Part shown: piece by piece, positions 1 through 38,423 of the stretch | Position numbering within the stretch: the first letter of the stretch is position 1 | Layout: each line of letters begins with the position of its first letter | NCBI RefSeq assembly: GCF_988243305.1 | Contig: NZ_OZ547136.1 | Length of the DNA stretch: 64,000 nucleotides | Strand: one strand, 5' to 3' | Made by a program: the position numbers and the translations under genes | Notes under the pieces: model-generated | What the model was told of the DNA's origin: nothing | The model's input: only the letters and a program-made list of their open reading frames with translations | Databases searched by the model: none

Positions 1-49
1 CCGGTAACGATAGTTTGTGTCAGTACATTGTTGCTCATCACTAACCCCC

Positions 50-3000
50 TTAATACAACGTATCCGGTAAACGGAATTGGCTGAACAGACCACCGGTGAA
101 CGGGTTATCTTCGGTATCCACATGCACCCGATAAACCATCGCGCCGCCGTCCACGTTAAAGCGCACGTTAAAGGTGTCACTGGTCACGTTGGTCAACTGG
201 CCCGCGCCGAACAGGCGGAACTGCGCCCACGGTCCACTGAAAGCGATACTGCGCGGTGCTCCACCGCTGGTGCCAACCAGCGTCAGCTTGCTTTCATTGC
301 CTTCACGCATGTTGTTTGGCCAGACCAGATGGGCGGTATAGTTGCGTCCCTGGCTGTAGTCCACTAACTGGCCGTCCAGGTTAAGTACGCTGCGCCGTTT
401 ATTGCCGGAAAGCGACACCGTTTCCACGGCAAATTGTGTGCCCAGCCCGTTCTGCTGGCTGAAGAAGATGTCGCGGATTTTTTGCGCGGTATCCAGTTGT
501 TGTCGGATATCTTCACGGATCAGCACTCTGCCGTCGTCGCCAAAGGTCAGATCGTTTTCAAGGAACAGTCGCAGGTTGTCCTTATAGAAATTGTCCAGAA
601 TGCCATCCGGTTTAAAGAAACGTTCAAACGCATCCAGTGAGGCATCCTGTGAGGCGCGTGGATTAAACGGATAGTTACCGGCAAGCTGTTCGTTGAAGGG
701 TTTCACTACATTGTCGCGCCAGTCCACTTCCATGTAATGAACAGCTTCCACCATCACCACGTGCCAGGCCTGATCCGCCAGCTTGCCCACCCAGCGGTTA
801 AGCGGTGCAGGCAGGGTTTTTGCCATCTGGCGGGTGGCGAAGATTGGATCGCTGCTGTTTTGATCCAGGCGTAGCTGCACTGCTTTCAGCGCCGATTTTC
901 CCGGCACTGGCGAGTTCTGGATCGCCAGCAGGTAACGGTGCAGCTCGGTCAGTTGCTGGTACACGGCCTGTAGCGTACTCGCCTTGTCCTTTTGCTCCTC
1001 CAGTGCGCTGTTTTCCGGTGCGAACTCATGCCCCAGCCGGGACAACAGGCGGTAATCCATCTCATTTATCACCGCTTCCCGCGCCTTATCGTCCAGTTTG
1101 CCGGAGAGCGTCAGCGCGTGTGTATTATCGCGCAGCGCCGTCAGCGCACGCTGGAATGGCTGATCGCCGCTGATAATCTGCTCCAGCGCGTCGGTCAGCG
1201 CCGGCATGGCCTCATAGTCACGGACGTTGAGATTATCCATTCCGGCACGCCATGTAGCGGTATAGTCACTGAGGTACTGTTCAGTGATATGGCGCTGGAT
1301 CTCTTCACGGTCGGCCTCGCTGTAGGCGACGCTTTGCGTCAGGTTCAGCACCCACGAATCCAGCGCGGTCAACTCAACGAGACCGTCGTGTTGTTTGATA
1401 AAATAGCTTTGCAGGCCATAGCGGGTGAGAAACTGCGGGATCACCAGTTTTTCATCATTACCGGCGACGAACACGTTGTCGAAGGTGGGACCAACCTGGT
1501 CGCGCAAATTCAAATCGGCGGGCAACACGCTTAATGCTTTGGTGCGTAGGGTCTGGTAGACACGCTGGTATATCGGCAGTTTGCTCAGTTCATGTTGCGC
1601 ATTAATGACCGGTTTATCATAGGGTGTCCAGCGGCTGATGGCGTCGCTGTCGCCGCTCTGGCGCTGCGCGTGCCAGTCGGTGTGTTCCAGCGCATAGTCC
1701 AGATGTGCCATCAGTTGCGCCTGAATATCACGCTGGCCGTGAAATTCATTGCTCCAGCGCCGCGCCATGTACTGTTTTACCGCCTCGTTGTTGCGCCCAC
1801 TTTTGTCTTCCATCATGCGCACTACGCGCAGCACGGCGAGTTTTTCTTCACTCTCAGGCGGGGCATTGTTCAGATCCCGGATCAGGCCGTTCATTAACGA
1901 GGGGAGATAACGCTGCTCAAGAAGCTGAATGTAGGTTTGTTCCACATATGGCCCTACGCGGACGCCCTGGTACAATCCCATATCCGCCAGAAAACCGTGA
2001 TCGCGGTAATCGCCGTAGGCGAGGGTGGCATCGCGTACCGGGTTGAGTAACGGCAGTTGCAGATTGCCGAATTCATCCTTTCCCTGCGGTGGTGGTACGT
2101 CCATAAAGGCTTTAGCCTGTGCCAGTACGTTAACGCCGGACTGCCAGTTCTGGTTGTAATAATGGTGCCAGCTTCCGACCAGCAATGCCGCCAGTGCCGC
2201 GCCACAGGCGGAAAAGGCGGTCAGCCTGCGCCGGGAGCTGTTCAGCCAGACGCTGTTTTCACCTGCAAGGTTTGGCTCGGCTAGCAGGACTTCCGGGAAG
2301 AGGCGGCGGGTGAAATACGGCGTTGTTTCCACCAGGGGCCAGGTCGCCAGCGAGCTGTTGCCCAGCCCGTACTGGCGGGCGGCGGACTGCGTGAAAATAT
2401 CATCCACCTGGCCGCGCTGTAGCGAGGATGTGAGCCAGACGCCGCGCAGCATCACATCCATATTCTCGCCGTCCAGCAATGCGGCGAGCAGTGAAGTGAC
2501 GATTTCTCCCGTTCCCTGCATCTGACGGGAGAAGCTGAACACGGCGCTGCGTAGCGCAGCACCGGTCTGCACGAGCATCAGGTCTGACAGGGCCAGGTTC
2601 ATCTGTTGTCCCCAGGTCTGCCAGAAGGTGCTCAGCTCGCTGCGCCAGTCATCGTTTTCATGAGCGCGGCGGGTAAACGTGACGCCGAGGATCGCGTCGC
2701 GGTCTTTTTTATCCAGTGAATGGAACAGCGCGGCAAAGCCGGTCAGTAGATCCAGCCGGGTCAGCACCACATAAACGGGCAACCGGCAGTGCAGGCACTG
2801 GCGAATTTCCTGAAGTTGCTGACGCAGATTTTGTACCAGTGCTTCGCGACGGAGTTTATCCGCCGTCAGCAGTTCGGGAAGATCGAGCGTCAGGATCAGA
2901 CCATTGAGCGGCTGGCGTGCGCGCGTTTCCATCAGCCAGCCCAGCCAGTGTTCGCGCAGGCGGCGGTGGAGCAGATCATCCCCGCCGGGGGAGGTCAGTA

Positions 3001-3577
3001 CGCCGTCAACATCGAAAATTACTGCCTGGTTGCCCACTCGCGGTGTGATCAGCGGATGATATTCCACACCCCGGATGCTTTCCGGCATGTAAATAATGTC
3101 AGACGGAAAGCCCTCGCGCAGCAGCGTGCTTTTGCCGCTACCCGCAGGACCAATGACCATATACCACGGCAACTGCCACAGATAACTGCGGTTATCCAGA
3201 TGGCGGCGCAGGCGCAGCAGCCAGTGATCCAAATATTGCTGCTGGTGGTGGAGTTCCACGGTCAACGGATCTTTTTCTTCCTCCCGCTGCTGTTTCTGCT
3301 GTTTTTCCAGCTTTTGCAGACGCTTCATTACCCGCCAGGTGAGCCAGACCAGAGCGATAAGCCCCCAGACGGCGGTCGCCAGCCAGCGGTTTGCCAGCGG
3401 AGCCAGCCAGTGCTGCTCATAGAGCGTCCATTTTGGACCCTGCCACCAGATCCACACCAGCAGAAAAATCCATGCCAGCGCCAGCAGCCAGGCGGCGGAT
3501 ACCTTGAATCGCGGCATCGCTGGCCTGAGCGCAGATCTCAACGAGCTGAACAGTCGGGATGTGGGAAATTTGAACAC
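50..3577 (-). CDS. tssM: Type VI secretion membrane subunit TssM (IcmF family)
   Basis: 1175-aa ORF; N-terminal hydrophobic helices (AWLLALAWIFLLVWIWW); Walker A-like GPAGSGKST; size and position typical of TssM; last gene of the minus-strand T6SS operon. Confidence 0.9.
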   Translation of the reverse strand: MFKFPTSRLFSSLRSALRPAMPRFKVSAAWLLALAWIFLLVWIWWQGPKWTLYEQHWLAPLANRWLATAVWGLIALVWLTWRVMKRLQKLEKQQKQQREEEKDPLTVELHHQQQYLDHWLLRLRRHLDNRSYLWQLPWYMVIGPAGSGKSTLLREGFPSDIIYMPESIRGVEYHPLITPRVGNQAVIFDVDGVLTSPGGDDLLHRRLREHWLGWLMETRARQPLNGLILTLDLPELLTADKLRREALVQNLRQQLQEIRQCLHCRLPVYVVLTRLDLLTGFAALFHSLDKKDRDAILGVTFTRRAHENDDWRSELSTFWQTWGQQMNLALSDLMLVQTGAALRSAVFSFSRQMQGTGEIVTSLLAALLDGENMDVMLRGVWLTSSLQRGQVDDIFTQSAARQYGLGNSSLATWPLVETTPYFTRRLFPEVLLAEPNLAGENSVWLNSSRRRLTAFSACGAALAALLVGSWHHYYNQNWQSGVNVLAQAKAFMDVPPPQGKDEFGNLQLPLLNPVRDATLAYGDYRDHGFLADMGLYQGVRVGPYVEQTYIQLLEQRYLPSLMNGLIRDLNNAPPESEEKLAVLRVVRMMEDKSGRNNEAVKQYMARRWSNEFHGQRDIQAQLMAHLDYALEHTDWHAQRQSGDSDAISRWTPYDKPVINAQHELSKLPIYQRVYQTLRTKALSVLPADLNLRDQVGPTFDNVFVAGNDEKLVIPQFLTRYGLQSYFIKQHDGLVELTALDSWVLNLTQSVAYSEADREEIQRHITEQYLSDYTATWRAGMDNLNVRDYEAMPALTDALEQIISGDQPFQRALTALRDNTHALTLSGKLDDKAREAVINEMDYRLLSRLGHEFAPENSALEEQKDKASTLQAVYQQLTELHRYLLAIQNSPVPGKSALKAVQLRLDQNSSDPIFATRQMAKTLPAPLNRWVGKLADQAWHVVMVEAVHYMEVDWRDNVVKPFNEQLAGNYPFNPRASQDASLDAFERFFKPDGILDNFYKDNLRLFLENDLTFGDDGRVLIREDIRQQLDTAQKIRDIFFSQQNGLGTQFAVETVSLSGNKRRSVLNLDGQLVDYSQGRNYTAHLVWPNNMREGNESKLTLVGTSGGAPRSIAFSGPWAQFRLFGAGQLTNVTSDTFNVRFNVDGGAMVYRVHVDTEDNPFTGGLFSQFRLPDTLY

Positions 3578-3596
3578 AGTAACTCCTTGTTATCTT

Positions 3597-5039
3597 TTAC
3601 TGTTCTGCCGTGAATTTTTGTTCCAGTGCTTTCAGCAGGGAAGGCTCCCATTCGGGTAGCATCATGTGTAAGCCTGTTTTGAAGAGCATCCGGTACTGCT
3701 GTTGTGCAAGCTGAACCATACCGGCTTCTTCCAGTAACTGCGCGCCGAAAAATTGGCGATGAAACTGGTTACGGGGATCACCTTCGGGCAGGTTTTCCAG
3801 ATACCGCAGCGCGGTTTCCAGCCCGTTCTCATCGAAGCACGCCCTGGCCGCCTGTAATTCTTCATCGGTCTGTACAGCTGCTGCGGTTTGGTTGCCTGAG
3901 CCCGATGGTGCCAGCCACTGTTTCGTCTGTTCGGACACAAACGGAGTGCGGTCGTTAAACAACAGGTTGATCAGTGCGGGCAGGCGAGCAAGAAAACTGG
4001 TAACTTCATCACGGATAGCATCCGCCACCTGTATATAACCAAGGCGCAACGCGGTCTGTGCTGAGAGGTAATGGCCGTCCAGCCAGTACGGGGCCAGCAG
4101 CAGGCTTTTTTCCACCTGCTGCCAAAGCGCCATGTCGGCATTGTTCAGTCGCGCCAGATAGTCATCCATCATATCTACAGGGAAAGCAGCCAGAGGGGTC
4201 CGGCCATCGCTTTCTGCCTGCGGGGTACTGGTGATGGTCTGCCACAGCGCATGGCGGCGCAGGCGGTAACCCAGCGGTGACTCCGGCTGACGTTCACAGA
4301 GAATGGCGGCTACCTTCAACAGGGTGTCGCGCCATGCTTTATCATCGTGGCTGTCCACGGTGACCTGCGGGATTGGAGTGGCTGCAACAGGAGGCTGAGC
4401 GGAAACTGTGTGCGGTAACATATCCGGTGCAGATCCGGTCGTGGCCTGCGGCGCAATGGCGGCGGTTCGTGCAGATGATGGCATTTCAGGCGCTACATCA
4501 CGAAACGCGCGCTGAAACAGAGTAAATAAATCGTCTGTCGCCTTAGCCAGCTCAGGCGCGTTGTGCGCCTGCCAGCACAGTGCCAGTTTTGCCAGCTCTC
4601 CCAGCAAAGCATCGCGCTGTGTTGTCACAGCATTCCCGGCAAAGTCATGAATGGCCGACTCAAAGCGTTTTATCACTTGGGTGGCGAAGCGTTTTTTGTG
4701 GGCCATGTTCTGCGGCGCGGCGCATGTCCAGTAGTGCTCTGTATATTGTGTCAGTATCCTGGAGGCCAGCAGAATATCACCGGCATGTTGCAGGGTACGC
4801 AGCAGGTGGGCCAGCAGGCGAAAATCTTTGGTTTCTGAGGCCAGAAGCATCAGGCCCCGGCGCTGAAGTTCGGGGATATCAAGCTGGCTGTGCGCCAGTG
4901 AACCGAGCTTGACGATTTCGCTGTCGATAAACTCCCAGTCTGCATTGCCATCATCAAGCGCGGCGGACAGCTTATCTTCCGGCAGGTTTTCCAGCAGGTG
5001 TGCAAGCCATATATCAGGATTACGTAAGTCCATTGCCAT
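3597..5039 (-). CDS. tssA: Type VI secretion protein TssA (ImpA family)
   Basis: ORF track gives 3597..5105; preferred start is the ATG at 5039 (MAMDLRNPDIW...), which has an AGGAGA Shine-Dalgarno 8 nt upstream on the minus strand and avoids overlap with the upstream gene; about 480 aa. Confidence 0.8.
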   Translation of the reverse strand: MAMDLRNPDIWLAHLLENLPEDKLSAALDDGNADWEFIDSEIVKLGSLAHSQLDIPELQRRGLMLLASETKDFRLLAHLLRTLQHAGDILLASRILTQYTEHYWTCAAPQNMAHKKRFATQVIKRFESAIHDFAGNAVTTQRDALLGELAKLALCWQAHNAPELAKATDDLFTLFQRAFRDVAPEMPSSARTAAIAPQATTGSAPDMLPHTVSAQPPVAATPIPQVTVDSHDDKAWRDTLLKVAAILCERQPESPLGYRLRRHALWQTITSTPQAESDGRTPLAAFPVDMMDDYLARLNNADMALWQQVEKSLLLAPYWLDGHYLSAQTALRLGYIQVADAIRDEVTSFLARLPALINLLFNDRTPFVSEQTKQWLAPSGSGNQTAAAVQTDEELQAARACFDENGLETALRYLENLPEGDPRNQFHRQFFGAQLLEEAGMVQLAQQQYRMLFKTGLHMMLPEWEPSLLKALEQKFTAEQ

Positions 5040-5787: not shown

Positions 5788-8516
5788 AAAACCGTTTCAT
5801 CCTTTGTGACAAACTCGTCGTCCTGAGCATCTTCCACGTCTGCCGTGAACGCGCCGTCTGCCGCCGACAGGCGGATACGGGCAATCGCCGTGTTGGCTGC
5901 CATTTTCTGCAACAGCAGCAGCGAGAGCGGCGGCAGCATGTCGCCATCGATGACCGATTCCAGCATCCTCGCGCCGTTTTCCGCGCGGGTGACGCGGCTC
6001 ATGATTTCGTCCGTCACTTCCGGCTCAATAATCACGTCCGCGCCAAAGCGGCTGCGCAGCACGTTATCCAGACGGGCCAGTTTCCCGGCAATAATGGTGG
6101 CGAGCGTCTCTTTCGACAGCGGCAGGTATGGCACCACTTCCATACGCGCCAGCAGCGCCGGTTTAAAGAAGTCCGCCAGCACCGGATAGAGCACTTCCTG
6201 CATGGTTTCCGGGTCATCGGCGTGTTCGACAATCACCTGATAACCAAGGTTGGAGGTGAGGAAGAAAACGATGTTTTTACAGTCAATCAGGCGGCCTTCG
6301 CCGTCTGCCATCTCGCCCTTGTCGAACGCCTGGTAGAACAGGTTGAGGACATCCGGGTGCGCTTTTTCCACTTCATCGAGCAGCACCACCGAGTAGGGTT
6401 TCTGGCGGATCGCTTCGGTCAGTACGCCGCCTTCGCCATAGCCGACATAGCCCGGAGGGGAGCCAATCAGCCGCGAGACGGTGTGTTTCTCCTGGAACTC
6501 GGACATATTGATGGTGGTCAGGTACTGGCGACCGCCGTAGAGCAGCTCTGCCAGTTGCAGGACGGTTTCGGTTTTACCCACGCCGCTGGGGCCAGCCAGC
6601 AGGAACGCGCCGAGCGGGCGTCCCGGACGGCGCAGGTCGGCGCGTGCGGTCAGCAGGTGTTTATGCAGGCTGGCAATTGCCAGGTCCTGGCCTTTGATGG
6701 TGTCACCAAGCCACTTCGGCAGGTCGGTGATGACCGACATTTCATTCTGCGACAGGCGGTTAAGCGGTACGCCGGTCCATTCGGCAATCACCGCCGCAAT
6801 CTGTTTTTTATCGACGTGCGGGGAAACCAGCAACCGGTCGTTATGCAGGGCGTCCAGTTCGGCAGTGAGTTGTACTAGCTGCTGCACCGGGGAAACTGTT
6901 TCAGCGGTCTCTTCCGGCTGTGTACTGCCCGCATCATCAGCCGGTGCGGTACCGGTATTATCCTGTTCTGACTCTGGCGGCGTATCCACTACGGCATCTG
7001 TGTCCTCTGTCACACCCAGCAATAGCTGGCGCAGCGCGATAATTTCCCGTACCAGCTTCTGCTGCTGGTGCCAGGCCGCTTCCAGTTCATCCAGCGCCGT
7101 CAGCGTTTCATCGTACTGCACCAGCACCTCAGTCATCCGTGAAGTGTCGGTACGCAGCCCGATGCGAAGCTCGCGCTCAAGCTGGCGAATTTCCGCCTCC
7201 TGCTGGTGGCTCAGGGTGGTCAGCGCCGAGATTTGCTTCGGTGGCGATGACAGGTTGATGGCCACACGGGCGCAGGCGGTATCCAGCACATCAATGGCTT
7301 TGTCCGGCAACTGACGCCCGGAGAGATAACGCTCGCTCAGCGTTGCTGCGGCCTGCAAGGCGTCATCATCAATCAGCACGCCGTGAGACTGTTCATAGAC
7401 CGCCGACAAACCGCGCAGAATAATGGTGGCTTCGGTGGCGTTGGGTTCGCTGATCTTCACTAACTGGAAGCGGCGCGACAAAGCTGCATCTTTCTCGAAG
7501 TATTTTTTGTATTCGCTCCAGGTTGTGGCGGCGATGGTTTTCAGTTCGCCACGCGCCAGCGCCGGTTTGAGCAGGTTGGAGATATCCAGCCCGCCCTGCT
7601 GGTTGCCCGCGCCAATCAGAGTATGTGCTTCGTCGATAAACAGAATGACTGGCACCGGAGAGGAAATGACCTCCGCCATCAGCCCCTTGAAGCGTTTTTC
7701 AAACTCACCTTTCACCGACGCACCGGCCTGTAATGCGCCCAGGTCAAGGGTCATAATATCGGTGTTTTTCAGCTTGTCCGGCACCTGGCCTGAGACAATA
7801 CGCAGCGCCAGCCCTTCGATTAAGGCACTTTTACCCACACCCGCTTCACCCACCACCACCGGATTGTTTTTACGACGGCGGCAGAGAATGTCGATCATCA
7901 GGTCGATTTCATGGTCACGGCACAGTACAGGGTCAAGTTTGCCGTTACGGGCATCTTCGGTCATGTTTTTGGCGTAGCGGGCAAGCCCGCTGTCGCCGGT
8001 TTCAGGCGTGCCGGGTGCCTGTCCGCCAACCTGGTTCACGGATTCGGCGGACTCTTTAGTCCATGACGCGAAATCCTGCTGTAACTGGTCGCGGTTTATG
8101 GCCGTCAGCAGACGGGCAGCAGCGGGTGGAATATAGCGCAGCGGTGAATGCAGCAGAGCCAGCAGCAGCACGCCGCCGCGTAGTTCGCTGTGCTGCATCT
8201 GGGCCGAGGCCAGCAGCCATGACTCCTTGAGCCATTCGACCAGCATCGGGGAGAAGCTGGGATAGCCTTCGGCGGAACGTCCGCTGGGATAACTCTCCAC
8301 GGTCAGCGCCTGGCGTAGCTCCTCCGCACTGATGCCTGTGCGTTCGGTAATTACCCTTACGTCGTTGCGCGGGATAGACAGCATCTGCAACAGCACATGG
8401 GCAACGGTGATCTCACTGGCCTGCTGGCTCATACACTCCGAGGCAGCCATTTCCAGCGCCTGTTTTGCAAAGGGGTTAAGCCGCTTTACCAGCGTGGCTA
8501 AATCAATCTGGATCAT
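5784..8516 (-). CDS. clpV: T6SS AAA+ ATPase ClpV (TssH)
   Basis: 910-aa ORF with two AAA+ modules: Walker A GEAGVGKS and GPSGVGKT; Clp N-domain-like N-terminus. Confidence 0.9.
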   Translation of the reverse strand: MIQIDLATLVKRLNPFAKQALEMAASECMSQQASEITVAHVLLQMLSIPRNDVRVITERTGISAEELRQALTVESYPSGRSAEGYPSFSPMLVEWLKESWLLASAQMQHSELRGGVLLLALLHSPLRYIPPAAARLLTAINRDQLQQDFASWTKESAESVNQVGGQAPGTPETGDSGLARYAKNMTEDARNGKLDPVLCRDHEIDLMIDILCRRRKNNPVVVGEAGVGKSALIEGLALRIVSGQVPDKLKNTDIMTLDLGALQAGASVKGEFEKRFKGLMAEVISSPVPVILFIDEAHTLIGAGNQQGGLDISNLLKPALARGELKTIAATTWSEYKKYFEKDAALSRRFQLVKISEPNATEATIILRGLSAVYEQSHGVLIDDDALQAAATLSERYLSGRQLPDKAIDVLDTACARVAINLSSPPKQISALTTLSHQQEAEIRQLERELRIGLRTDTSRMTEVLVQYDETLTALDELEAAWHQQQKLVREIIALRQLLLGVTEDTDAVVDTPPESEQDNTGTAPADDAGSTQPEETAETVSPVQQLVQLTAELDALHNDRLLVSPHVDKKQIAAVIAEWTGVPLNRLSQNEMSVITDLPKWLGDTIKGQDLAIASLHKHLLTARADLRRPGRPLGAFLLAGPSGVGKTETVLQLAELLYGGRQYLTTINMSEFQEKHTVSRLIGSPPGYVGYGEGGVLTEAIRQKPYSVVLLDEVEKAHPDVLNLFYQAFDKGEMADGEGRLIDCKNIVFFLTSNLGYQVIVEHADDPETMQEVLYPVLADFFKPALLARMEVVPYLPLSKETLATIIAGKLARLDNVLRSRFGADVIIEPEVTDEIMSRVTRAENGARMLESVIDGDMLPPLSLLLLQKMAANTAIARIRLSAADGAFTADVEDAQDDEFVTKDETVL

Positions 8517-31351: not shown

Positions 31352-31455
31352 GTCTGGCGTAGGCCGAATAATGCGTTTACGCCGCATCCGACCTGAAAAT
31401 ACTTAAATCAATCTTCGCCGGGGGCCATGCGCTCCCGCTGTTGTGGAGGTTACCC

Positions 31456-32223
31456 ATGTGCGAATTGCTCGGGATGAGCGCCAACGTCCCTACCGATATC
31501 TGCTTTAGTTTCACCGGTCTGGTGCAGCGTGGTGGTGGAACCGGGCCACATAAAGATGGCTGGGGCATTACCTTTTACGAAGGTAAAGGCTGTCGCACAT
31601 TTAAAGATCCGCAACCCAGCTTTAATTCCCCCATCGCCAAACTTGTCCAGGACTACCCGATAAAATCCTGTTCGGTGGTGGCTCATATTCGCCAGGCGAA
31701 TCGGGGCGAGGTGGCGCTGGAAAATACTCACCCGTTTACCCGCGAGTTATGGGGGCGTAACTGGACTTATGCCCATAACGGACAACTGACGGGGTACAAA
31801 TCACTGGAAACCGGCAACTTCCGCCCGGTCGGTGAAACCGACAGCGAAAAAGCCTTCTGCTGGCTCCTGCATAAATTAACGCAGCGTTACCCGCGCACAC
31901 CGGGCAACATGGCGGCAGTGTTTAAATATATCGCCTCACTGGCGGATGAACTGCGGCAGAAGGGCGTTTTCAACATGCTGCTTTCTGACGGGCGCTATGT
32001 AATGGCGTATTGCTCGACTAATTTACACTGGATCACCCGCCGCGCGCCGTTTGGCGTGGCAACGTTGCTGGATCAGGATGTGGAAATCGACTTCAGCTCG
32101 CAGACCACACCGAATGATGTGGTCACGGTGATTGCGACACAGCCCCTGACGGGCAATGAAACCTGGCAAAAGATTATACCAGGCGAATGGCGCTTATTTT
32201 GCCTCGGGGAGCGTGTAGTTTGA
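31456..32223 (+). CDS. yafJ: Class II glutamine amidotransferase YafJ
   Basis: [15 protein letters not shown]... with Cys2 nucleophile; GGAGG ribosome-binding site upstream; 255 aa. Confidence 0.85.
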
Positions 32224-32934
32224 TGCCAGCTGTGGTTGCACAACTTCGTGGCTTAACGGCTTGCTGACCACGTAACGGCCATTGACCACAGAAACGGTCG
32301 GTGGCTTACGGGTTTGCTCAAAGTAGTCGTAGCCCGGTTTCAGTTGCTCCCAGAAGTCCTTAAAGTTGGAATACTTATGGCGCTTCATATTGGCGTCGGT
32401 CATGCGGAACGGGTAAATACTCACTTGCACGCTCGGCTGACCAAACACCAGCGCACCAGTAACGAACTGGAAGATCTCATCAATACCCTGATTGGTCATC
32501 GCGTAGCAGCCGATGGAAACACAATCGCCGTGGATCATCAGGTATTTCCCTTCATAACCATGCGCACGGTCATAGGCATTGGGGAATCCAATATTAATCG
32601 CTTTGTAGTAACGGCTGTCTGGTTTTAACTGATTACGCTGGACGCTATAAAACCCTTCCGGGCTTTTGAAATCGCCCTGACGCTGTTTTGGCCCTAAACC
32701 GCCGGAATATTTACAGATTTTATAACTGTCGAGCAGCTGATATTGCTCGCCCATTTTGACGTAGAGATCGAGCGTACGTTCTTCCTTGAAGATCTGGATG
32801 TAGACAGGGGATCCCATCAACTGCTGCTTATACTCTTTGCTCACTGGCGTGGTTGAGCTACTGCTGCCCAGCAAACCGGCAAACGAAACGCACGGGATCA
32901 ACAACATCGCAAGAATTAATGCGATTTTACGCAT
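32194..32934 (-). CDS. yafK: L,D-transpeptidase family protein YafK
   Basis: 246 aa; signal peptide; catalytic [12 protein letters not shown] motif of the YkuD family. Confidence 0.85.
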
Positions 32935-33225
32935 ACTGCTTATTCCTTGATAAAACGGTTACACACGCCAGGACGGCAAAATGGATCCCAAATCGGAATA
33001 GTCTGGATTTGGAAGGCTCACATTATCACCAAAAGAGTTTTACGCAAGCCTGTCGGCGCAGGGTTTACAAATTTAGCACAGGGGCAGTTTTCAATAGTCC
33101 GAAAAGCGCATGTATCATTTATTTCCTAAGATTATGAAACCTCAATAGTAATATGCAAATAAGCAATTAATAATTCCGTTTACTCCTCCGGTCTTTTAAA
33201 ATTCTCACCTTCATTCAGCCGGTTT

Positions 33226-33984
33226 ATGTCCTTCATGTCTTCGTTCTTGCTCGGCAGATTTCTGCATCCAGGCGTGTTTTCGTTATGCGTTTTGCTCCCT
33301 TTACTCGCCAGCGCCACCACATCACATATCTCATTCAGCTACGCCGCCCGCCAGCGGATGCAAAACCGTGCGCGTTTATTAAAACAGTACCAAACCCATC
33401 TGAAAAAACAGGCCAGCTATATTGTGGAAGGCAATGCCGAAAGCAGAAAGGCGCTGCGCCAGCACAACCGCGAACAGATAAAACAGCATCCAGAATGGTT
33501 TCCTGCGCCGCTCAAGGCGAGTGACAGACGCTGGCAGGCGCTGGCGGAAAACAACCACTTTTTAAGCAGCGACCATCTGCATAACATCACCGAAGTGGCG
33601 ATCCACCGCCTGGAGCAGCAGCTTGGCAAGCCTTACATCTGGGGCGGCACGCGGCCTGATAAAGGCTTTGACTGTAGCGGGTTGGTTTTTTATGCCTACA
33701 ACAAGATCCTCGAGGCGAAACTCCCACGCACGGCTAATGAGATGTATCACTATCGCCGGGCAACCATTGTGGCGAATAACGACCTGCGCCGGGGAGATTT
33801 GCTGTTTTTTCATATCCACAGCCGCGAGATTGCCGACCATATGGGCGTGTATCTGGGCGATGGACAGTTTATTGAGTCGCCGCGCACCGGGGAAACCATA
33901 CGGGTAAGTCGGTTAGCTGAACCTTTCTGGCAGGATCATTTTTTAGGCGCGCGCAGGATTTTGACGGAAGAGACGATTTTGTAG
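33226..33984 (+). CDS. yafL: NlpC/P60-family lipoprotein YafL
   Basis: 252 aa; NlpC/P60 motif GFDCSGLVFYAY plus downstream His; matches YafL as recalled. Confidence 0.8.
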   Translation: MSFMSSFLLGRFLHPGVFSLCVLLPLLASATTSHISFSYAARQRMQNRARLLKQYQTHLKKQASYIVEGNAESRKALRQHNREQIKQHPEWFPAPLKASDRRWQALAENNHFLSSDHLHNITEVAIHRLEQQLGKPYIWGGTRPDKGFDCSGLVFYAYNKILEAKLPRTANEMYHYRRATIVANNDLRRGDLLFFHIHSREIADHMGVYLGDGQFIESPRTGETIRVSRLAEPFWQDHFLGARRILTEETIL

Positions 33985-34081
33985 GACGGCAATACTGCGA
34001 AAAAGTTAAAGTCGTACACGTTTTTCTCCCTCTCCCCAAAGGGGCGAGGGGACAGTCCGAGACCTTATATAGTCTCCCCCA

Positions 34082-35821
34082 TCAACTCAACGCCCCCATA
34101 ATCTTCAACTCCAGCTCGTCCGGCACTTCGTTATACGACAGCACATGCAGCCCCGGCGCAAACAACCTTGCATAACGCGCCAGCAAAGGACGCAACTGCG
34201 GCGGCACCAGCAGCACCGGGTCTTTCCCCGCCGCTTTCATCTGCTCTTTTACCTGCGGCATCGTACTCTGGAACTGGTTGAGCATATTCGGATCGACCGG
34301 CACGCTGTCGAGCATCACTTTCCCGCCCTGTTGCGCCTGATTCACCACGTTGGTCAGCAGATTTTCCAGTTCATTATTCAGCGTATACACCGCCAGCTCC
34401 TGCTTGCGAACGAACGGATGGGTAATGCTGCGCCGCAATGCCAGGCGCACATCGGCCGCCAGCAGGATATGATCTTTGGTCACTGTGCTACTGGCGACCA
34501 GCACGGTGGCGATGGTGACGATATCGCGCAGGGAAACGCCTTCGGTCAGCAGCGCCCGGTACACTTTCAACAACTGGCTGTAATTGAGTGCCGCGCTCAA
34601 ATCTTCCGCCAGCCGTGGTGCCATCGATGACAGGCGATTGTGTAACTGCGTGATGTCGTCATAGTTAAACAAATCAGGAATATAGCTGCGCACAATCTTG
34701 TTCACATGGGTGGCAATCACGCTGGCGCTGTCGATCACCTGATACCCCATATTCAGCGCCTTCGCCTTCTGCGCGGGCTGGATCCAGGTGACCGGCATCC
34801 CGTACGCCGGGTCGTTCCCCAGCACGCCGTCTATCTCGCCGTAGGTTTCGCTGGAGGGCAGCGCCATCAGTTTATCCGCCGGAATATCCGCTTCATCGGC
34901 CTTAATGCCGTTGATGAATATGGCGTACTGGCTGGGCTTGAGGCGGAAGTTTTCCCGAATGCGGATCTCCGGCAGCAGCACGCCGTTGCCGTCAGAAATC
35001 ACCTGCCGCACGCCGCGAATTCGCTGGGTGAGCGGGTTGCCCTGTGCTTTGTCCACCAACGCCACCAGCTTGTAGCCGAGACTTAAACTGATAGGCTCGA
35101 TCAGCGGAATGGTTTCCCAACTGACCTGTTGCTCGCTGGTTTCGGTGATAGTCCGGGTCAGCGTTTCGAGGCTTTTCTCTTCTGCCTCCGCCGCCTGCGG
35201 GCGTTTGCTCATCCGCCAGCCGGTAAAACCCAACAGGGCGCTGAACAGCAAAAACGGCAGATGCGGCATCCCCGGCACCACCGCCAGCACAAACATGATC
35301 CCGGTGGCGGTGTAGAGCACCGACGGGCTTGCCAGCAGCTGGTGGCGCACGTCATGGGCGATATCGCCGTTGTCGCTGACGCGGGTGACGATAATTGCCG
35401 CCGCGGTGGAGAGCAGCAGGGACGGGATCTGCGCCACCAGGCCGTCGCCGATGGTCATCAGCACATATTGCTGGAAGGCGGCATCGGCGCTCAGGTTGTA
35501 TTTGAAGATCCCGATACAGACGCCGCCGATCAGGTTGATCGCCAGAATCATCATCCCGGCGATGGCGTCCCCGCGCACAAACTTCGATGCCCCGTCCATT
35601 GCGCCGTAGAAATCAGCCTCGCTGGCAACATCTTTACGCCGGGTTTGCGCCTGCGCCTGGTTGATCAACCCGGCGTTAAGATCGGCGTCAATCGCCATCT
35701 GTTTGCCGGGCATCGCGTCCAGGGTAAAGCGGGCAGAAACCTCGGAAATACGCTCGGCCCCTTTGGTGACGACAATAAAGTTGATTGTCAACAGCGTCAG
35801 TAAATCCGAGCGTGAAAGCAT
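34082..35821 (-). pseudogene. lfhA: lfhA: 5'-truncated Flag-2 flhA homologue (promoterless fragment)
   Basis: 579-aa ORF homologous to FlhA from about residue 110 onward (...FIVVTKGAERISEVSARFTLDAMPGKQMAIDADLNAG...); lacks the FlhA N-terminal transmembrane region. Confidence 0.75.
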
Positions 35822-35825
35822 TATC

Positions 35826-36551
35826 GCCGCGCTGCACGGGCAGTCGATTTTTAACGGTGGCGGGCTGTCGCCGTTAAATAAAATCAGCCCGTCTCATCCG
35901 CCAAAACCTGCCACCGTGGCGGTGCCGGAAGAGACGGAGAAAAAAGCGCGTGACGTCAACGAGAAAACGGCGCTGCTGAAGAAGAAATCCGCTACTGAGC
36001 TTGGCGAGCTGGCGACCAGTATCAACACCATCGCCCGTGATGCACATATGGAAGCGAATCTGGAGATGGAGATTGTTCCCCAGGGACTGCGCGTGCTGAT
36101 TAAAGATGACCAGAACCGCAATATGTTTGAACGCGGCAGCGCGCAGATTATGCCGTTCTTTAAAACTTTGCTGGTGGAGTTAGCACTGGTTTTTGATTCG
36201 CTCGACAATAAGATCATCATCACCGGGCATACCGATGCGATGGCCTACAAAAACAATATTTACAACAACTGGAACCTTTCGGGCGATCGCGCGCTTTCGG
36301 CCCGTCGGGTGCTGGAAGAGGCCGGAATGCCGGAAGATAAAGTGATGCAGGTAAGCGCAATGGCGGACCAGATGCTGCTGGATGCCAAAAATCCGCAAAG
36401 CGCGGGCAACCGGCGCATTGAGATTATGGTGCTGACCAAAAGTGCGTCCGATACGCTGTATCAATACTTTGGTCAGCATGGGGATAAAGTGGTGCAGCCG
36501 CTGGTGCAAAAGCTGGATAAGCAGCAGGTGCTTTCGCAGCGAACGCGTTAA
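35826..36551 (+). pseudogene. lafU: lafU: 5'-truncated Flag-2 MotB-like gene (C-terminal OmpA-like domain only)
   Basis: C-terminal MotB/OmpA-like region (...NWNLSGDRALSARRVLEEAGMPEDKV...GNRRIEIMVL); N-terminal membrane anchor absent; 5' boundary approximate (ORF track 35661..36551 overlaps lfhA). Confidence 0.6.
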
Positions 36552-36621
36552 ATGCTGAATCTTTACGCATTTCTCAAACTCTGAAATCACTGTATACTTT
36601 ACCAGTGTTGAGAGGTGAGCA

Positions 36622-37677
36622 ATGCGTAAAATCATTCATGTGGATATGGACTGCTTTTTCGCCGCAGTGGAGATGCGCGACAATCCCGCCCTGCGCGATA
36701 TCCCTATTGCTATTGGCGGCAGCCGCGAACGTCGGGGGGTGATCAGCACCGCCAATTATCCCGCGCGTAAATTTGGCGTACGTAGCGCTATGCCTACTGG
36801 GATGGCGCTCAAATTATGCCCACATCTCACCTTGCTTCCGGGGCGCTTTGACGCTTACAAAGAAGCCTCAAATCATATCCGTGAAATCTTCTCGCGCTAC
36901 ACCTCGCGCATTGAACCGTTGTCACTGGATGAGGCCTATCTCGATGTCACTGATAGCGTCCATTGCCACGGTTCTGCGACCCTCATCGCCCAGGAAATCC
37001 GCCAGACAATCTTCAACGAGCTGCAACTGACGGCGTCTGCGGGCGTGGCACCAGTAAAGTTTCTCGCTAAAATCGCCTCCGACATGAATAAACCCAACGG
37101 CCAGTTTGTGATTACGCCGGCAGAAGTTCCGGCATTTCTGCAAACCTTACCGCTGGCAAAAATTCCCGGCGTCGGCAAAGTCTCGGCGGCAAAACTGGAA
37201 GCGATGGGGCTGCGGACCTGCGGTGATGTGCAAAAGTGTGATCTGGTGACTCTGCTCAAACGTTTTGGCAAATTTGGCCGCATTTTGTGGGAGCGTAGTC
37301 AGGGGATTGACGAGCGCGACGTTAACAGCGAACGGTTACGAAAATCCGTCGGCGTGGAACGCACGATGGCGGAAGATATTCATCACTGGTCTGAATGTGA
37401 AGCGATTATCGAGCGGCTGTATCCGGAACTTGAACGCCGTCTGGCAAAGGTGAAACCTGATTTACTGATTGCTCGCCAGGGGGTGAAATTAAAGTTCGAC
37501 GATTTTCAGCAAACCACTCAGGAGCACGTCTGGCCGCGGCTGAATAAAGCTGACTTAATTGCCACCGCGCGTAAAACCTGGGATGAACGTCGCGGCGGGC
37601 GCGGTGTGCGGCTGGTGGGGCTGCATGTGACGTTGCTTGACCCGCAAATGGAAAGACAACTGGTGCTGGGATTATGA
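36622..37677 (+). CDS. dinB: DNA polymerase IV DinB
   Basis: 351 aa; [26 protein letters not shown]... Y-family polymerase. Confidence 0.9.
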
Positions 37678-37728
37678 TGTATACTATTATGTCTATTCTG
37701 GTGTGCATTATTATGAGGGGATCACTGT

Positions 37729-38022
37729 ATGCATCGAATTCTCGCTGAAAAATCGGTCAATATCACTGAGTTACGTAAAAACCCAGCTAAATACTTTATT
37801 GATCAACCGGTTGCGGTTCTTTCTAATAATCGCCCCGCAGGATATCTCTTAAGTGCCAGCGCATTCGAAGCGTTAATGGACATGCTTGCAGAACAAGAGG
37901 AGAAAAAACTGGTGAAGGCGCGCTTCCGTCCGAGTGCCGCAAGATTAGAGGAAATTACACGCCGCGCTGAACAATATCTTAATGATATGACGGATGATGA
38001 TTTCAATGACTTTAAGGAATAA
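37729..38022 (+). CDS. yafN: Antitoxin YafN
   Basis: 97 aa; matches YafN as recalled; immediately upstream of yafO. Confidence 0.85.
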   Translation: MHRILAEKSVNITELRKNPAKYFIDQPVAVLSNNRPAGYLLSASAFEALMDMLAEQEEKKLVKARFRPSAARLEEITRRAEQYLNDMTDDDFNDFKE

Positions 38023-38024
38023 GG

Positions 38025-38423
38025 ATGCGGGTATTCAAAACAAAACTTATTCGCCTGCAACTTACAGCAGAGGAACTTGATGCGTTAACGGCGGATTTTA
38101 TTTCCTATAAGCGTGACGGTATTTTGCCAGATATATTTGGTCGCGATGCACTCTACGACGACTCGTTTACCTGGCCATTAATCAAATTTGAGCGAGTTGC
38201 TCATATTCATCTGGCAAATGTGAATAATCCATTTCCGCCACAGTTGCGCCAATTCAGCAGAACGAATGACGAAGCGCATTTGGTATATTGTCAGGGGGCG
38301 TTTGATGAGCAAGCATGGTTGCTCATTGCCATTCTGAAGCCTGAACCTCATAAACTGGCTCGAGATAACAACCAAATGCATAAAATTGGAAAAATGGCAG
38401 AAGCGTTTCGCATGCGTTTTTGA
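38025..38423 (+). CDS. yafO: Toxin YafO
   Basis: 132 aa; matches YafO as recalled; starts 3 nt after the yafN stop. Confidence 0.85.
   Translation: MRVFKTKLIRLQLTAEELDALTADFISYKRDGILPDIFGRDALYDDSFTWPLIKFERVAHIHLANVNNPFPPQLRQFSRTNDEAHLVYCQGAFDEQAWLLIAILKPEPHKLARDNNQMHKIGKMAEAFRMRF

Follow-up and report, generated by a model that had tools for sequence, protein, structure and literature searches.

The compact yafK-yafL-lfhA interval is probably a cassette-free haplotype of a two-site polymorphism flanking yafL in Escherichia

In the 64-kb stretch of E. coli DNA analysed here (64,000 nucleotides of contig NZ_OZ547136.1, referred to as the window), the short interval between yafK and lfhA very likely represents the "empty-empty" combination at two sites, one on each side of yafL, where Escherichia genomes differ in the cassettes they carry. 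Judged by alignment, both differences from K-12 are segment replacements rather than clean insertions or deletions. The window presents an ordinary presence/absence polymorphism, an instance of known accessory-gene variation whose components have been published.

The interval is anchored on the left by yafK (dpaA), a minus-strand gene for a peptidoglycan meso-DAP protein amidase (32194-32934, ORF of 246 aa), and on the right by lfhA', the truncated Flag-2 flhA homologue, also on the minus strand (34082-35821, ORF of 579 aa), with lafU' and then dinB downstream. Between them on the plus strand lies yafL (33226-33984, ORF of 252 aa), an intact NlpC/P60 (C40) peptidase gene whose product matches Pfam PF00877 (NLPC_P60) over residues 134-244 of 252 with E = 9.9e-33 and thus carries the C40 peptidase domain. 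The DpaA protein is 100% identical to that of K-12, and dpaA, yafL and the lfhA remnant are all unbroken, as in other strains. According to the ORF listing, the yafK-yafL gap (gap 1) covers 32935-33225 and the yafL-lfhA gap (gap 2) covers 33985-34081, that is, the 291 bp and 97 bp given for them in an earlier note on this DNA. Strain TUM14771 is annotated with a PGAP-style yafL start, which corresponds to 33235 here and would lengthen gap 1 to 300 bp.

The earlier note had stated that K-12 carries dinJ-yafQ in the first gap and rayT in the second, and had found no matching ORFs here. The stated order agrees with the annotation of NC_000913.3, which reads dpaA < yafQ < dinJ < yafL > rayT > lfhA', and the absence was borne out by tblastn in six frames of the 64-kb window, where none of the three genes was found in an expected or an unexpected frame. 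K-12 DinJ and YafQ gave best E values of 0.74 and 1.4 against the whole window, which holds no type II module pairing the RHH antitoxin DinJ with the RelE/ParE-fold toxin YafQ; RayT gave 0.25, with no RAYT (HUH Y1 transposase, ~165 aa) recognizable, and HicA and HicB queries from strain EC01 gave 1.9 and 0.18, with no HicAB pair. A sensitive blastn search across the window recovered none of the missing genes. Small ORFs inside both gaps, screened against Pfam for an alternative small toxin-antitoxin (TA) pair, matched no family.

Alignment with the yafK-lfhA interval of K-12 MG1655 (NC_000913.3, 245,065-250,070), the check that the earlier note had proposed, showed the same anchor genes in the same orientation, and the yafQ-dinJ and rayT segments had no counterpart in the window. 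The two genomes share the Flag-2 deletion, with its lfhA'/lafU' junction, and are collinear without gaps through lfhA'-lafU'-dinB (34087-38224). The window differs from K-12 in lacking yafQ, dinJ, rayT and all of the rayT-flanking REP/BIME copies; its yafL has another promoter and signal peptide, its spacer is of the boxC type, and its lfhA stop codon context appears to be the ancestral one.

At the dpaA promoter side of gap 1, 140 bp (32935-33074) are 100% identical to the K-12 dpaA-yafQ intergenic region. Homology to K-12 detectable by megablast stops at 33074 and resumes at 33307, inside yafL at about codon 27. The allele-specific block between these points (33075-33306, plus strand) comprises the yafL upstream region and the first ~27 yafL codons, which encode the signal peptide. 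It has no megablast match in K-12, and global alignment against the K-12 block gives patchy similarity only. These 232 bp stand in place of ~839 bp in K-12, which contain yafQ and dinJ with their promoter, the DNA between dinJ and yafL, and another version of the yafL start. The YafL signal peptide reads MSFMSSFLLGRFLHPGVFSLCVLLPLLA in the window and MSLPSIPSFVLSGLLLICLPFSSFA in K-12; the window N-terminus resembles that of Citrobacter YafL (FMSF..FLPGLLSLCV), whereas the K-12 N-terminus does not.

E. albertii, Escherichia sp. E1V33 and the divergent "E. coli" SCPM-O-B-8794, all of which are without dinJ-yafQ, have a homologue of the 232-bp block at the same place, with 76-81% identity to it. 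Beyond the genus, a YafL scan of species-representative genomes yielded 25 loci, 24 of which were annotated by tblastn. In eight Citrobacter loci that cover both gaps, and in Phytobacter, the order is yafK-yafL-lfhA and every one of the cassettes is missing; in Kluyvera and Atlantibacter the yafL-lfhA gap is likewise free of cassettes, and yafK was not detected upstream of yafL there. Citrobacter genomes such as C. braakii ATCC 51113 and C. youngae resemble the window in gene order, YafL signal peptide type and the MGALS* end of lfhA, but Flag-2 is intact in some of them and their DNA identity to the window is far lower. Because Citrobacter and Phytobacter are cassette-free, the block has homologues in Escherichia outgroups and the signal peptide is Citrobacter-like, we infer that the dinJ-yafQ-less state is ancestral and that the K-12 type represents a gain which arrived with a replaced yafL 5′ end.

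On this reading, the first site of the window would hold the ancestral allele, in which dpaA and yafL have promoters pointing away from each other and YafL keeps its ancestral signal peptide. In K-12-type strains, a foreign or strongly diverged ~839-bp block would have brought in yafQ-dinJ, the promoter and a different yafL 5′ end. This block was probably imported by homologous recombination, with crossovers at 33074 in the dpaA-proximal intergenic region and at 33307 inside yafL. K-12 and Escherichia sp. MOD1-EC7003 share 98.7% identity in the yafQ-dinJ pair but 89-96% in the flanking genes, a disparity that suggests exchange of the cassette between species and fits homologous recombination. 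When a donor of the K-12-type block was sought among the 24 outgroup loci, only a weak 63% match to its yafL-proximal part was found, in Citrobacter amalonaticus.

The remaining body of yafL (33307-33984) is 94.4% identical in DNA between the window and K-12, as compared with ~98% for neighbouring genes, and identities among the window, K-12 and EC01 are all 93-94%. This divergence is consistent with several deep haplotypes that were kept, or imported along with flanking cassettes.

In the opposite history, an ancestor of this strain had both cassettes and later deletions removed them, so that the gaps would be scars and the palindrome and the short motif GTAGGACGG at gap 2 would be REP/BIME remnants. 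At gap 1 this is contradicted by the 232-bp block, which is not a subset of the K-12 sequence and has the homology to dinJ-yafQ-less outgroups and the Citrobacter-like signal peptide described above. Gap 2 provides evidence on both sides.

In gap 2, sequence common to K-12 runs 5 nt past the yafL stop, to 33989, and resumes at 34087 in the last lfhA codons. The last common bases (33981-33989, plus strand), made up of the yafL stop codon and 5 nt, read GTAGGACGG. In K-12, where gap 2 is filled by rayT flanked by inverted REP/BIME copies, the same 9 nt open the first REP in the BIME that flanks rayT. The allele-specific spacer of the window (33990-34081) occupies the place of rayT and its REP/BIME arrays or of hicAB, a third allele that strain EC01 carries at this site. 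The 88 bp of spacer that follow the 9-mer have no similarity to K-12 rayT/REP/BIME DNA or to the EC01 hicAB segment. At the opposite edge, the lfhA' C-terminus is MGALS* in the window and in Citrobacter and MGALM* in K-12; the window apparently retains the ancestral lfhA 3′ end, and replacement at gap 2 would have changed the last lfhA codon in K-12.

As in the REPIN-RAYT system, gap 2 is where E. coli has its single RAYT gene, and the 9 nt GTAGGACGG match the start of a REP, but the window has neither a RayT gene nor a REP hairpin there. Of the elements that define a REP (PU), a GTAG tag and a ~35-nt palindrome of the form GCCGGATAAGGCG...CGCATCCGGC, only the 9-mer is present at gap 2. The K-12 rayT segment matches the window at a single REP (31359-31390), outside the interval. 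That REP is the only one in the gmhA-yafJ gap of the window (31352-31440); K-12 has ~69 bp more there, a second REP unit, which constitutes a REP copy-number polymorphism.

All four other Escherichia sampled (E. albertii, E1V33, MOD1-EC7003 and SCPM-O-B-8794) carry rayT at the gap-2 site, and in each of them the REP begins right at the yafL stop codon. This identical left junction in every rayT-bearing Escherichia sampled argues that the insertion of rayT was single and old. In K-12, E1V33 and E. albertii the first REP has the same non-canonical 9 nt with which the spacer begins. Both ends of the spacer have diverged homologues in the hicAB allele, and the rayT allele of E1V33 keeps the right end of the spacer together with the MGALS* stop; along with the shared 9-mer, these relics suggest an old spacer backbone. 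The spacer allele of E. coli could be either a retained pre-rayT allele or a secondary replacement of rayT, and the 9-mer at its start could also be read as a REP stump left by deletion.

The age of rayT in the genus, the left junction shared by four other Escherichia and the REP-like first 9 nt of the spacer would all suit loss of both cassettes from an ancestor, as would the known capacity of REP/BIME arrays to expand and contract (PMC8049555). Against such a loss, gap 2 shows no REP, BIME or rayT similarity beyond the 9-mer, the palindrome comes from a different repeat family, the lfhA stop region appears to be the ancestral form lost in K-12, and the spacer-end pieces in the hicAB and E1V33 rayT alleles suggest that the spacer backbone came first. 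We consider loss of both cassettes improbable. In the favoured two-site polymorphism, the second site holds one of three mutually exclusive inserts, namely rayT with its REP/BIME copies, hicAB, or a boxC-type palindrome spacer.

The earlier note had described an imperfect palindrome as all that remains in the second gap. A palindrome is indeed present, with arms at 34028-34037 (CCCTCTCCCC) and 34041-34050 (GGGGCGAGGG) that are 9/10 complementary around an AAA loop, but it is not a REP leftover. That candidate was rejected because the sequence is different and belongs to a dispersed family of its own; no GTAG tag adjoins it. The unit has one match in the window and none in shuffled sequences. 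Near-identical units occur in K-12 at gldA-yijF, yhfZ-trpS and, next to fabI, ycjD-fabI. A query with the 59-nt unit matched between 1 and 35 places in individual E. coli genomes, 19 being the median, which places the unit among dispersed GC-rich palindromic repeats.

The boxC family, reportedly described by Bergler in 1992 and Bachellier in 1996-99, was first named in the envM/fabI region. BoxC of E. coli is 56 bp long, with 32 copies known and 22 detected in a published survey (PMC2267715). The palindrome family is apparently boxC, an identification made by location and copy number rather than by consensus alignment: the counts (median 19, up to 35) compare with the 22-32 reported, and one member adjoins fabI/envM. 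Like boxC, the palindrome is a GC-rich imperfect one located between genes; the window holds only a truncated unit with a single hairpin (34028-34050, CCCTCTCCCC-AAA-GGGGCGAGGG).

A role for the palindrome as a canonical Rho-independent or bidirectional terminator was also rejected, as a terminator scan of 33985-34081 was empty and neither strand has a U-run after the stem; a T-run lies 5′ of the stem on the plus strand. A search of 32800-34300 against Rfam for known RNAs (E <= 1) returned one match, to Antizyme_FSE, which was rejected as chance-level (20 bits vs. a gathering score of 40).

The truncated state of the unit can be understood by comparison with longer spacers. Apart from 64 missing bp, the 97-bp spacer matches that of E. 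coli 7CC, which is 161 bp long, at every position, and it is almost identical to the 161-bp spacer of Pseudocitrobacter vendiensis outside the same 64-bp gap. This gap is bounded by a 5-bp CCCTC repeat, of which the window copy (34028-34032) constitutes the junction microhomology. The 161-bp spacer forms an almost perfect inverted repeat whose stem measures 33 bp (-82.7 kcal/mol, z = -8.7); the 97-nt spacer has modest fold z-scores of -2.2 and -1.0. The 64-bp difference is most simply explained if a long, unstable palindrome lost one of its arms by deletion. Such a deletion, between the two CCCTC repeats, would have removed one arm and the centre of the inverted repeat and left one small hairpin. 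Most Citrobacter loci differ from the window in having, between yafL and lfhA, a simple GC hairpin of 43-44 bp (AAGGCGGTGC...GCACCGCCTT) instead of a boxC-type spacer; in C. amalonaticus the yafL-lfhA gap is 131 bp.

The resemblance to P. vendiensis extends beyond the spacer. Over a tract of ~280 bp, which extends from the final 33 nt of yafL across the 161-bp spacer into the first ~85 nt of lfhA, 7CC and P. vendiensis differ at only 2 positions (2378-2656 in the 7CC locus extract; 5846-5899 and flanks in the P. vendiensis extract), and the adjoining yafL and lfhA sequences are 5-10% diverged. Near-identity of this kind suggests either that the two genera exchanged the tract recently or that it is a non-coding element under unusual constraint. 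Both P. vendiensis and P. faecalis have yafL/Flag-2 in a different genomic context, without gmhA-yafJ-yafK upstream (extract 1-5000), and Pseudocitrobacter LfhA is 98% identical in protein to that of the window. At the same junction, P. faecalis has an E. coli-like rayT (93% aa) and P. vendiensis has the spacer. The different context and the E. coli-like rayT of P. faecalis suggest that the whole yafL/Flag-2 block has moved between genera.

These observations raise the alternative that the spacer allele was recently imported from another genus, for example from a Pseudocitrobacter-like donor, with rayT or hicAB overwritten by homologous recombination over a short tract. The ~280-bp tract with diverged flanks, the foreign context of the block in both Pseudocitrobacter species and the presence of rayT in one and the spacer in the other speak for such an import. 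However, E. coli could equally have been the donor, and a single very recent import sits poorly with the occurrence of the spacer in E. coli genomes of several backgrounds, some with dinJ-yafQ and some without it, and with Flag-2 either intact or deleted. We regard import of this kind as possible but rather doubtful. A further locus came from a metagenome-assembled genome, "Clostridiales bacterium W0P5.003", in which the 3.4-kb contig SFGJ01000062.1 carries yafL-hicBA-lfhA' with 97-100% protein identity. This is plainly E. coli DNA, and the contig is likely a contaminant binned into the Clostridiales genome.

The alleles at both sites were counted in 5,426 complete E. coli genomes. At gap 1, dinJ-yafQ is present in 3,340/5,426 and the window-type block in 2,084/5,426, so that the two alleles together account for 5,424 of the 5,426. 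Gap 2 holds hicAB in 1,480/5,426 and the short spacer in 127-150/5,426; rayT is present in 3,575/5,426, never at more than 2 places per genome. Consequently, 38% of the genomes are without dinJ-yafQ and about 34% are without rayT. The earlier note had proposed strain-level gain or loss, and these frequencies uphold gain or loss as the frame. What they do not sustain is a peculiarity of one strain, as the variation lies between lineages and is population-wide.

Combined haplotypes were counted using chimeric queries that join allele-specific pieces. The haplotype of the window, with the spacer and no dinJ-yafQ, was the rarest (39/5,426, or 0.7%); 18 of these genomes have the 97-bp spacer and 21 have the 161-bp spacer. 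Absence of dinJ-yafQ together with hicAB was found in 344 genomes. These two classes, of the six, were counted directly, and the other four follow from subtraction and sampled genome matches: ~1,134 genomes have dinJ-yafQ with hicAB and about 88-111 have dinJ-yafQ with the spacer (both by subtraction), and the remaining genomes have rayT with or without dinJ-yafQ. The existence of all six combinations shows recombination between the two sites across the 0.7 kb of yafL.

Cassette-free E. coli, including TUM14771, MS 69-1, Z1323HEC0462, PCN033 and 7CC, have an architecture identical to that of the window. Their allele-specific segments are 97-99.7% identical to those of the window in 35 of the 39 genomes and ~94.5% identical in the other four, and the 97-bp spacers of TUM14771 and MS 69-1 are 100% identical to it. 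The same 1,007-bp configuration, collinear base for base, recurs in 18 independent complete genomes, with a 64-bp longer spacer in 21 more. REP/BIME arrays are prone to collapse in short-read assemblies, and the compact gaps might on that ground be ascribed to an assembly or annotation artefact such as a collapsed repeat array. Given this recurrence, and as the collapse of a repeat could not remove the unique coding sequences of rayT and dinJ-yafQ, the chance of an artefact is negligible.

No complete E. coli genome (n = 5,426) matches the window above 99%, and the lineage of the window is without a close representative in this collection. The best matches are 98.6% over 2 kb and 98.8% over 16.6 kb (Z1323HEC0462); over 24 kb (20000-44000) the best is 97.1%, in 6 joined pieces that include a variable T6SS/PAAR region. 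Z1323HEC0462, one of three tied closest cassette-free matches, has a complete Flag-2 cluster where the window has the deletion (34082-36551), so the cassette-free yafL haplotype occurs on both Flag-2 states.

This variation agrees with what has been reported for the components. Type II TA systems, dinJ-yafQ among them, are accessory, unevenly distributed among E. coli phylogroups and horizontally mobile (PMC7167474 and its references 32-33), and dinJ-yafQ appears among listed gained or lost genes (PMC6896753). RAYTs are single-copy, mostly vertically inherited genes (PMC5581495), and RAYT-free E. coli genomes, which have fewer REPINs than others, have been documented (PMC8049555). Because rayT occurs as a single copy whose locus is fixed, the source genome as a whole very probably encodes no RayT. 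The literature that we searched yielded no description of the signal-peptide swap, of the three-way alternation at the rayT site or of the boxC deletion derivative, all of which are minor details.

A more far-reaching joint reading would make the yafL flanks a hotspot of cassette exchange, in which RayT with its BIMEs, HicAB and boxC compete at GTAGGACGG, combined with the YafL swap and a functional spacer. We think this very unlikely. If it were true, a single insertion point, the REP-like GTAGGACGG at the yafL stop codon, would be contested by three inserts. Each gain of dinJ-yafQ would swap the YafL signal peptide and promoter, coupling a peptidoglycan hydrolase to an SOS-regulated TA promoter region, and the near-identity of the E. 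coli and Pseudocitrobacter spacers (2 differences in ~280 bp) would mark a functional non-coding element rather than a recent exchange.

The two-site polymorphism that we favour has little importance beyond strain typing. It does indicate that K-12 should not be taken as the ancestral template for this locus, where dinJ-yafQ would be an acquired cassette accompanied by a replaced yafL 5′ end, and that the only RAYT gene of E. coli shares its site with two alternatives. A strain with this haplotype is probably without DinJ-YafQ and RayT, which is relevant to studies of TA-linked phenotypes or of REP/REPIN dynamics. The six haplotypes found across a 0.7-kb gene provide a neat small example of how recombination shuffles accessory cassettes.
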